A stretch of 40,468 bases of DNA, from the NCBI GenBank assembly GCA_011364925.1, contig RDOA01000032.1:1-40468 (forward strand), in the 5' to 3' direction. Position 1 is the first letter of the stretch; each line of letters starts with the position of its first letter. The translations under genes and the position numbers were made by a program. Source of the stretch: Promethearchaeota archaeon. Its GTDB lineage: Archaea; Asgardarchaeota; Lokiarchaeia; Sigyniarchaeales; SOKP01. Positions 10,771-12,049 of the stretch are shown piece after piece. The notes under the pieces are model-generated. The model ran no database searches and had not been told where the DNA came from. It saw only the letters and a list, made by a program, of their open reading frames with translations.

Positions 10771-11568
10771 CTACTTTAATTCTACAAGTTTAGCTGTTTT
10801 ATAAAGATAATTGAAGTAATAATTGCTAGCCGGCCCAAAAGCGATGTGATCTGTATCCACACCAAAATAACTCATTCCCTTAAAAATTTCCTGAGTTAAA
10901 ATAATAAACGCTTCTTCCCCTTCATCCATTACGATACTAGTTCCAAAAACTTGGTCGCGGGAGCAAACCTCACAAACTTGAGAGTATTTTCGAATGATTT
11001 CCTTAAATTTATCGTCTTCTAACGCATGTTCCTCGATTAACAATTTAATATCTATTACTCCACGAGCTCTAGCTTTTTTAATATCGTCATAAAAAATCTC
11101 TAAAAATTCATAATAGGGCGCTACAATATAAAGAGAATTTTTAGCGTGTTCAATAATCTTCAAACTTCTGTTTATACATACATCTCTTCCACGATGAATG
11201 TATAATGCTACTTTTATTGGTGTGTCGTGCGATTCATAAATAGGTGTTAAACTTCTAATAATATCATTGCTATGCTTGTCAAATTGGACGTTGTATTGTT
11301 TTTTAGCAATAATCAATGCCTCATCTGGACTTTTGGCAAAATATCTGCTAGGACGGGATTCCTCTTCCTTGATAATCCACTTCTTCTCTTTTTCTAATTG
11401 GGTTAAAATATTGTATATTCTTGAGTAAGGCACAGCACTGGTATCAGATAACTCCCTTGCGTCCATAGGTCCTTTTGAGATCAGAGTTAAGTAAATAGCA
11501 ATCTCATAATCGGTGAGTCCTATGGCTCGTAAAGCATCCTTAACATTATCGGGAGTTTCATTCGACAT
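10771..11568 (-). CDS. TrmB family transcriptional regulator
   Basis: LRAIGLTDYEIAIYLTL...ELSDTSAVPYSRIYNILTQLE...RPSRYFAKSP wHTH, followed by an effector domain. Confidence 0.92.
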   Translation of the reverse strand: MSNETPDNVKDALRAIGLTDYEIAIYLTLISKGPMDARELSDTSAVPYSRIYNILTQLEKEKKWIIKEEESRPSRYFAKSPDEALIIAKKQYNVQFDKHSNDIIRSLTPIYESHDTPIKVALYIHRGRDVCINRSLKIIEHAKNSLYIVAPYYEFLEIFYDDIKKARARGVIDIKLLIEEHALEDDKFKEIIRKYSQVCEVCSRDQVFGTSIVMDEGEEAFIILTQEIFKGMSYFGVDTDHIAFGPASNYYFNYLYKTAKLVELK

Positions 11569-11701
11569 AATTAAGTGATTACAATCAAAATAATGTAATT
11601 AAAGAGGTTTTAAACACTTATAAGAATTTTGTTAATTAATATACTAGATAATGCTACATACTATATATATTATTATTAGTATTAATTTTATTAACCCTTG
11701 C

Positions 11702-11748
11702 AAGGTTAGTCATCTTGCGGCTAAGATTTTTCCGCAAAAATCATCCTT
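11702..11748 (-). promoter_or_regulatory. Putative eukaryote/Lokiarchaeia-type SECIS element (kink-turn hairpin)
   Basis: Minus strand reads AAGG-AUGAU-UUUUGCGG-AAAAAUCUUAG-CCGCAAGA-UGAC-UAA-CCUU: AUGA/GA core, 8-bp upper helix, unpaired apical adenosines. It starts 2 nt after the UAA of an ORF that contains an in-frame UGA. Confidence 0.75.
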
Positions 11749-11750
11749 TT

Positions 11751-11936
11751 TTACTTCAAATATAAACTTACCATAATATTGCATATATTAGGTCATCCTC
11801 CTCCTGTGTCTTCGAGCGATACATAATAATAGATAATCAGTGATATCAATATGGCAGAAGTAATAATCAGCGCAGTGAGCACGATATAGAGGATGATTCT
11901 ATTTACTTTCCTATTTTCAACTACTTTTAACGGCAT
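11751..11936 (-). CDS. Small single-pass membrane protein, candidate selenoprotein (61 aa, Sec48)
   Basis: MPLKVVENRKVNRIILYIVLTALIITSAILISLIIYYYVSLEDTGGG-U(TGA 11793-11795)-PNICNIMVSLYLK-TAA. A TATA-like TTAATATATAT lies about 25-30 nt upstream and a SECIS-like hairpin follows the TAA. Confidence 0.7.
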
Positions 11937-12049
11937 AAGAAAAGTCTTATTTTATTTTTTATATATATTAATCTCAGAGATATTTATAGCTTTTTCAAAT
12001 ATTAAGATTAGATTATATTCTCAAAATAGTAGAGTGTTGAAAGATTAAA

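Follow-up and report, generated by a model that had tools for sequence, protein, structure and literature searches.

The window, by which we mean the whole 40,468-nucleotide stretch of DNA that was analysed, carries a short minus-strand ORF flanked by a divergent radical SAM gene on one side and a co-oriented trmB gene on the other (Table 1). The ORF is present in no standard ORF call. Read through an in-frame TGA at codon 48, it encodes a product that ends GGG-U-PNIC..., a UxxxC arrangement in which U48 is followed by a 13-residue tail containing Cys52. Five of residues 4-13 are lysine or arginine, and residues 14-39 form a 26-residue uncharged, hydrophobic stretch. An earlier note on this DNA had described a basic start, a hydrophobic helix, GGG-TGA and a 61-residue UxxxC product, and each of these was confirmed at 11936-11751 (-). 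TATA-like boxes upstream, recognised by consensus match alone, are compatible with the ORF having its own, nearly leaderless transcript.

The window protein has no Pfam match, and Pfam and NCBIfam together returned nothing specific, only generic signal-anchor matches with no consistent NCBIfam match. Its AlphaFold model contains two helices (pLDDT 74), and a Foldseek search of this model against the PDB gave no match at E<=0.001.

Table 1. Coordinates of the putative micro-selenoprotein gene and its surroundings in the window.
Feature	Position	Strand	Remark
Micro-selenoprotein ORF, UGA read as Sec	11751..11936	-	61 aa (47 aa if UGA is a stop); ATG at 11936, TAA at 11753-11751
Basic N-terminal segment, residues 4-13	11898..11927	-	Predicted cytoplasmic anchor, positive-inside rule
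Single transmembrane helix (predicted), residues 14-39	11820..11897	-	Conserved small-residue stripe at 20, 22/23, 25/26
Acidic/Gly-rich linker, residues 40-47, ends GGG	11796..11819	-	Homologue charge and Gly pattern
In-frame UGA, inferred selenocysteine 48	11793..11795	-	TGA in 99/99 homologues vs 14% TGA stop usage
Tail after Sec	11754..11792	-	Cys52 at 11783-11781; hydrophobic/amphipathic end
Loki-type SECIS core (eukaryote-like type I)	11710..11744	-	
Short second hairpin, just 3' of SECIS	11693..11707	-	Also behind the genome's other SECIS elements
TATA-like boxes	11956..11989	-	~53 and 31 nt upstream of ATG; consensus match only
trmB-family regulator	10771..11568	-	Downstream; neighbour only within genus g1, outside the unit

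Homologues and the coding signal after the UGA

Iterated searches of the order and the phylum, with inspection of the loci, recovered 99 homologous loci from nine genera in two Lokiarchaeia families: 96 belong to six genera within the window's own family, and the remaining three to another family of the class, where the SECIS loop differs. Within the largest Lokiarchaeia family most genomes carry a member, and the micro-selenoprotein family also occurs in this second one. Its proteins are roughly 45-80 amino acids long, and several genomes encode two paralogues, one of which has a poly-Asp linker and a Cys before the Sec.

The earlier note had proposed to check its reading by looking across homologues for a conserved TGA, a co-conserved SECIS, coding conservation past the TGA and exchange between TGA and TGY, and by confirming Sec machinery in the genome. 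At the aligned site TGA is present in all 99 homologues, and each TGA is followed, at a distance of 34-122 nt, by a SECIS that shows compensatory changes, with three loci passing the SECIS criterion only at 6 of 8 pairs. Neither TAA nor TAG occurs at this site in any of the 99, and all 24 readable loci among 25 recovered from metagenomes likewise have TGA. As a stop codon, TGA is used by 323 of 2243 long ORFs in the genome (14%) and by 1 of 25 neighbouring trmB genes.

Coding conservation past the UGA was assessed in 42 representatives below 55% identity. A Cys lies within the first four post-UGA codons of 30 of the 42 in frame, versus 2 and 9 in the other frames. The density of stop codons between UGA and SECIS is 0.041 per codon in frame versus 0.129 and 0.069 off frame, and shuffled sequence gave 0.089+/-0.009, with a minimum of 0.066 in 1000 shuffles. 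All four proline and all four glycine codons occur at position +1, both cysteine codons are used, the interval from Sec to Cys varies by whole codons (UC, UxC, UxxC, UxxxC), and the tail exceeds shuffled sequence in hydrophobicity. The conserved Cys, synonymous codons, in-frame indels and depleted stops thus point to the coding conservation that the note had proposed to look for, with the caveat that loci were retained if they showed the architecture, search profiles partly included post-UGA columns and the genomes are related, so that the post-UGA and conservation statistics overstate independence. Beyond the first few codons the tail drifts, varying from 1 to more than 40 residues, and constraint on the predicted tail is therefore limited to its start and its openness.

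The UxxxC arrangement of the window protein did not hold up as a family motif, as UxC is the commonest form and UC, CxU, CxxU and Cys-free forms also occur. A Cys is found within positions -5 to +4 of the Sec in 89 of the 99 members, and about 10% have no partner Cys. No clean Cys homologue was found in an exhaustive profile search of 1.84 billion representatives, in a second search or in a metagenome scan whose pattern would also have caught a Cys version. The profile search returned only family members cut at the UGA and three unrelated repeat proteins, and the second search agreed. In the sole orthologue that lacks the TGA (L121), a 33-nt duplication covers the site and the SECIS is retained. 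The proposed TGA/TGY exchange was thus absent among the homologues; such exchange is an aid to classification and is not required. NCBI entries for the family are truncated at the UGA and named as hypothetical proteins of Candidatus Lokiarchaeota or Promethearchaeota, which assigns the genome to the Lokiarchaeia.

Profile, SECIS-model and pattern queries, which left few candidates to be scored, did not find the family in sampled non-Loki Asgard genomes or in two single-contig genomes of family f3 (G143 and G148), whose SECIS elements differ. Weak profile matches at L023, L103, L106, L109, L129-L131 and L146-L148 were dropped as being without the architecture or a SECIS. The L129 locus (G240, family f18) encodes a protein with one helix, whose N-terminus is likewise first basic and then hydrophobic and leads into a Cys/Ser-rich repeat; it has no UGA or SECIS and is possibly an analogue of the micro-selenoprotein family.

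The SECIS element and the Sec machinery

The SECIS core of the window gene lies 48 nt downstream of the UGA, 6 nt beyond the TAA, and reads AUGA, 9 nt, an 11-nt loop that starts AAAAA and ends AG, 9 nt and GA. It agrees in all features with the lokiSECIS as published (PMC4989117). The earlier note's distance of about 50 nt from the TGA is accurate; its placement of the hairpin 2 nt after the TAA includes a putative lower helix, which we rejected as unsupported because the 5' flank is not conserved. Among 29 close homologues, 98% of stem cells are paired and there are 22 double-sided changes, far more than in shuffled and slid controls. In a broader set, to which SECIS elements of other genes also belong, compensation occurs in all 8 pairs.

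A strict SECIS scan of the 3.9-Mb genome found 11 matches (shuffled genomes gave 0-5) and speaks against the window element being a chance match. Ten of these stand behind genes with an in-frame UGA or a known selenoprotein gene, namely four VhuD genes, VhuU, a Prx-like gene, two tandem-UGA ORFs, a zinc-ribbon ORF and the window gene, and one is an apparent chance match. The SECIS of a fifth VhuD gene has a 10-nt loop and was added after the strict scan. A covariance model, the training set of which includes the window SECIS itself, likewise gave 11 matches at E<0.003, with the next only at E~5. By folding energy alone the window hairpin is marginal (z about -2), and Rfam has nothing relevant at the locus.

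Eukaryotic SECIS elements need a distance of about 50 nt or more from the UGA. The spacing in the window (48 nt), and in some family members (34 nt), is shorter than this, so read-through may be inefficient. The shortest spacing seen, 34-36 nt, occurs at family f5 loci L110-L112, where the SECIS loop starts with a sequence other than AAAAA. Divergent SECIS elements with 7-nt arms and an 8-nt loop, then a second GAUGA and a GNRA hairpin, follow VhuD genes of family f3 (L167, L181 and L182; G143, G148 and G147). Almost every Loki SECIS examined, including divergent ones and those of other families, is followed 3-7 nt after the GA by a short hairpin, often with GC in its loop. This hairpin may belong to the Asgard SECIS without having been recognised as such, and it was not seen in the available text of PMC4989117 or PMC11227280.

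The Sec machinery listed in the earlier note was found in full. SepSecS (E 6e-113) and an EFSec-like factor (228 bits, just under the bacterial SelB cut-off) are encoded on contig C64, a PSTK-like kinase on C20 (E 2e-49, under cut-off), and two selD genes, which lie in tandem and each contain an in-frame UGA, at C94:2995-5290 (-). The tRNA-Sec gene lies between EFSec and SepSecS at C64:6532-6682 (+) and was located by BLAST with a relative's tRNA. It was missed by RF01852 and by ARAGORN on the unspliced sequence because it has two introns, one after the anticodon and one in the T loop; with these removed, ARAGORN calls tRNA-SeC(tca). An intact Rfam tRNA-Sec match is present in 16 of the 42 genomes of the window's genus, and close relatives in the genus that also have no intact match may share the split gene.

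Other ORFs with SECIS elements came to light in this work. Two paralogous ORFs that end in tandem UGA codons, at C32:33569 (+) and C39:19285 (-) (L151 and L154), have a strict SECIS ~130 nt downstream and are candidates for further new selenoproteins. A small zinc-ribbon-like ORF at C24:22109 (+) (L150) ends in TGA-TAA with a strict SECIS ~44 nt downstream. In genome G137, a HesB-like-looking ORF (L162:1141-1470 (+)) has an in-frame UGA (SSUCG) with a lokiSECIS directly downstream.

The invariant UGA, SECIS, coding tail, Sec machinery and absence from published family lists support the earlier note's proposal of an undescribed selenoprotein class, and none of the three outcomes that the note had named as refuting it was observed. 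Judged from sequence, the window gene almost certainly belongs to a real and apparently undescribed family of Lokiarchaeia micro-selenoproteins.

Topology, proposed mechanism and competing explanations

Across the 99 homologues, the mean net charge is +3.1 before the helix and -1.8 between the helix and the Sec. Lysine or arginine occupies positions 10, 12 and 13 in about 80% of homologues, and the linker (median 13 residues) has a net charge <=0 in all 99, with Gly at -1, -2 and -3 from the Sec in about 70%. From this charge bias and the median length of the uncharged run (27 residues), we infer that the helix is likely an uncleaved N-in/C-out (type II) anchor with the Sec on the outside. The earlier note had cautioned that the Sec might face outward, and the charges before and after the helix predict this orientation. 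The conserved stripe of small residues along the helix suggests a packing partner or a homodimer.

We propose a mechanism in which the 3' SECIS very probably recodes the UGA as Sec via EFSec and tRNA-Sec, so that only a 47-residue stub would be made without selenium. The basic N-terminus would likely remain cytoplasmic, with the helix as an uncleaved signal anchor and the Gly/acidic linker holding the Sec on the outer face. These two steps together, with the window gene as founding member of a Lokiarchaeia-specific family, form our best explanation and are jointly probable. The most likely role of the Sec, at roughly even odds, is that of a tethered redox arm. It would switch between the selenolate form and a selenenylsulfide made with the Cys close by, or else enter a diselenide or mixed bond with a partner packed against the helix, and would thereby act on thiols of surface and membrane proteins, either reducing or protecting them. 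A Sec-Cys distance that varies between members is easier to reconcile with a flexible arm than with a rigid thioredoxin-type site, and SELENOS uses a selenenylsulfide bond in a disordered tail (PMC10650576). In one genus a CxxU-type paralogue adjoins a DsbD/CcdA-like gene. Coupling to DsbD/CcdA was rejected as a general explanation because this neighbour is convergent and DsbD_TM is matched in only 24 of 135 family genomes; the window's genome has no match, and a general way of returning an external Sec to its reduced state is therefore not evident.

Instead of a redox arm, the Sec, Cys and acidic linker might form a metal or selenium ligand, making the protein a soft-metal surface trap, a selenium sink or a mini-subunit that donates Sec to a membrane metalloprotein. 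The linker is acidic and often poly-Asp, CxU, CxxU and UxC arrangements vary, a general DsbD-type reductant is missing, and there is a precedent in VhuU, which donates Sec to the nickel site of hydrogenase. However, at the loci inspected no gene for metal transport or for a metalloenzyme is a conserved neighbour, and ligands of a single defined centre should stand at a constant Sec-Cys spacing, leaving this idea doubtful. Cleavage of a signal peptide or double-glycine leader to free a short secreted selenopeptide starting at or near the Sec is improbable: although GG directly precedes the Sec in about 70% of members and the N-terminus is basic and then hydrophobic, the uncharged run ends without a conserved small-residue cleavage pattern, CxxU paralogues have no GG, no peptidase or exporter is a conserved neighbour, and some members would release only 2-3 residues.

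The invariant TGA, the covarying SECIS, the coding signal beyond the UGA and the genes found in front of ten of the 11 strict SECIS matches all argue against the UGA being a true stop, which would yield a 47-residue membrane peptide ending in GGG and leave the SECIS-like RNA as a relic or stability element. Such termination is how all database proteins are annotated and would accord with the drifting tail and the short UGA-SECIS spacing, but we consider it very improbable. Control of trmB in cis by the ORF acting as a selenium-sensing leader would explain why the two are co-oriented and syntenic at most loci of genus g1. This synteny is confined to g1, as other genera have a different gene downstream, which frequently runs in the opposite direction, and at one g1 locus (L018) another gene is inserted between the ORF and trmB, making a leader role extremely improbable. 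Neighbours change and the SECIS stays, and the signal therefore belongs to the micro-selenoprotein ORF. A reading of this family as remotely homologous to eukaryotic SELENOK/SELENOS, or as their forerunner, with a cytoplasmic Sec, is quite improbable. One N-terminal helix and a Gly-rich stretch are shared, the Sec is second or third from the end in 10 of 99 members (GGGUG, GGGUC, GTGUGG), and the SELENOK/SELENOS family is itself defined by architecture and not by sequence (PMC10650576). Nevertheless, PF10961 touches no family locus in 42 genomes even at E<=1, the linker is of a different kind, the charge bias predicts type II and not type III topology, and the queries used did not find the family outside Lokiarchaeia.

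Comparison with known selenoproteins

We favour a membrane-anchored selenoprotein with an outward-facing Sec. The family is fairly probably an ancestral, Lokiarchaeia-wide, Sec-only membrane microprotein by which a selenol is displayed at the cell surface. If so, archaea would have their first membrane-anchored micro-selenoprotein, and the small eukaryotic membrane selenoproteins with GG-U tails would have an Asgard counterpart, whether through convergence or through deep ancestry. A survey of >400 Asgard genomes gives seven selenoprotein families, all found by homology and none eukaryote-specific (PMC11227280). The known Asgard selenoproteins are SelD, FrhA/VhuU, HdrA, FrhD/VhuD, Prx-like, AhpF-N and DsbA-like proteins (PMC11227280, PMC4989117), and a 2026 review puts the archaeal total at 11 families (PMC13188914). 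A membrane microprotein is absent from the seven-family list and from the 11 archaeal families, and a literature search that reached few subscription papers found no such archaeal family.

In the window family and the known Asgard selenoproteins alike, the recoding signal is a type I lokiSECIS that sits near the stop codon or overlaps it, with arms of 9 nt and an A-rich loop of 11 nt. Those proteins were found by homology and have Cys homologues. The window family, in contrast, consists of single-pass microproteins in which no domain can be detected and for which no clean Cys version turned up, and homology-led surveys would therefore overlook it. It adds an orphan selenoprotein family that is mis-annotated as a truncated hypothetical protein wherever it is called, and it would extend selenium chemistry to the archaeal cell surface. 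If our reading is true, searching for SECIS elements first exposes a part of the Asgard selenoproteome that had stayed hidden. With 99 natural pairs of UGA and SECIS, the family also offers a direct handle on minimal recoding spacing in a system without SBP2.

Like the VhuU selenopeptide of [NiFeSe] hydrogenase, the window gene encodes a very small archaeal selenoprotein that presents one Sec. VhuU is soluble, encoded in a hydrogenase operon and homologous to the C-terminus of the large subunit, whereas the window gene has a predicted membrane anchor and no stable operon. MYXO-CTERM and GlyGly-CTERM are C-terminal sorting signals with Gly/Cys motifs. They resemble the window family in having GG-(C/U)-x-C on the outer side of a helix and basic residues inside, but the family has the reverse chain order and is a standalone ORF without a passenger domain.

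SELENOK and SELENOS (PF10961 and PF06936) are also small, with one hydrophobic helix near the N-terminus, a Gly-rich flexible segment and a Sec in a GG-U context, which is penultimate in some window-family members. Their post-helix segment is defined as rich in Gly, Pro and positively charged residues (PMC10650576), forming a long, basic, Pro-rich linker unlike the short, acidic one here. Their Sec is second or third from the C-terminus, whereas that of the window gene is 14th from the end and that of the family usually 11-35, and they are type III proteins with a cytosolic Sec. Neither PF10961 nor PF06936 is among the 25 families listed for 43 members. The earlier note had warned that homology to these proteins was not shown, and the likeness is indeed architectural only, making convergence the safer reading. 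Asgard archaea are the closest prokaryotic relatives of eukaryotes, and in the literature searched a protein of this kind had not been reported in archaea. The family thus makes it testable whether the eukaryotic design of a small GG-U membrane selenoprotein has Asgard roots or arose twice.
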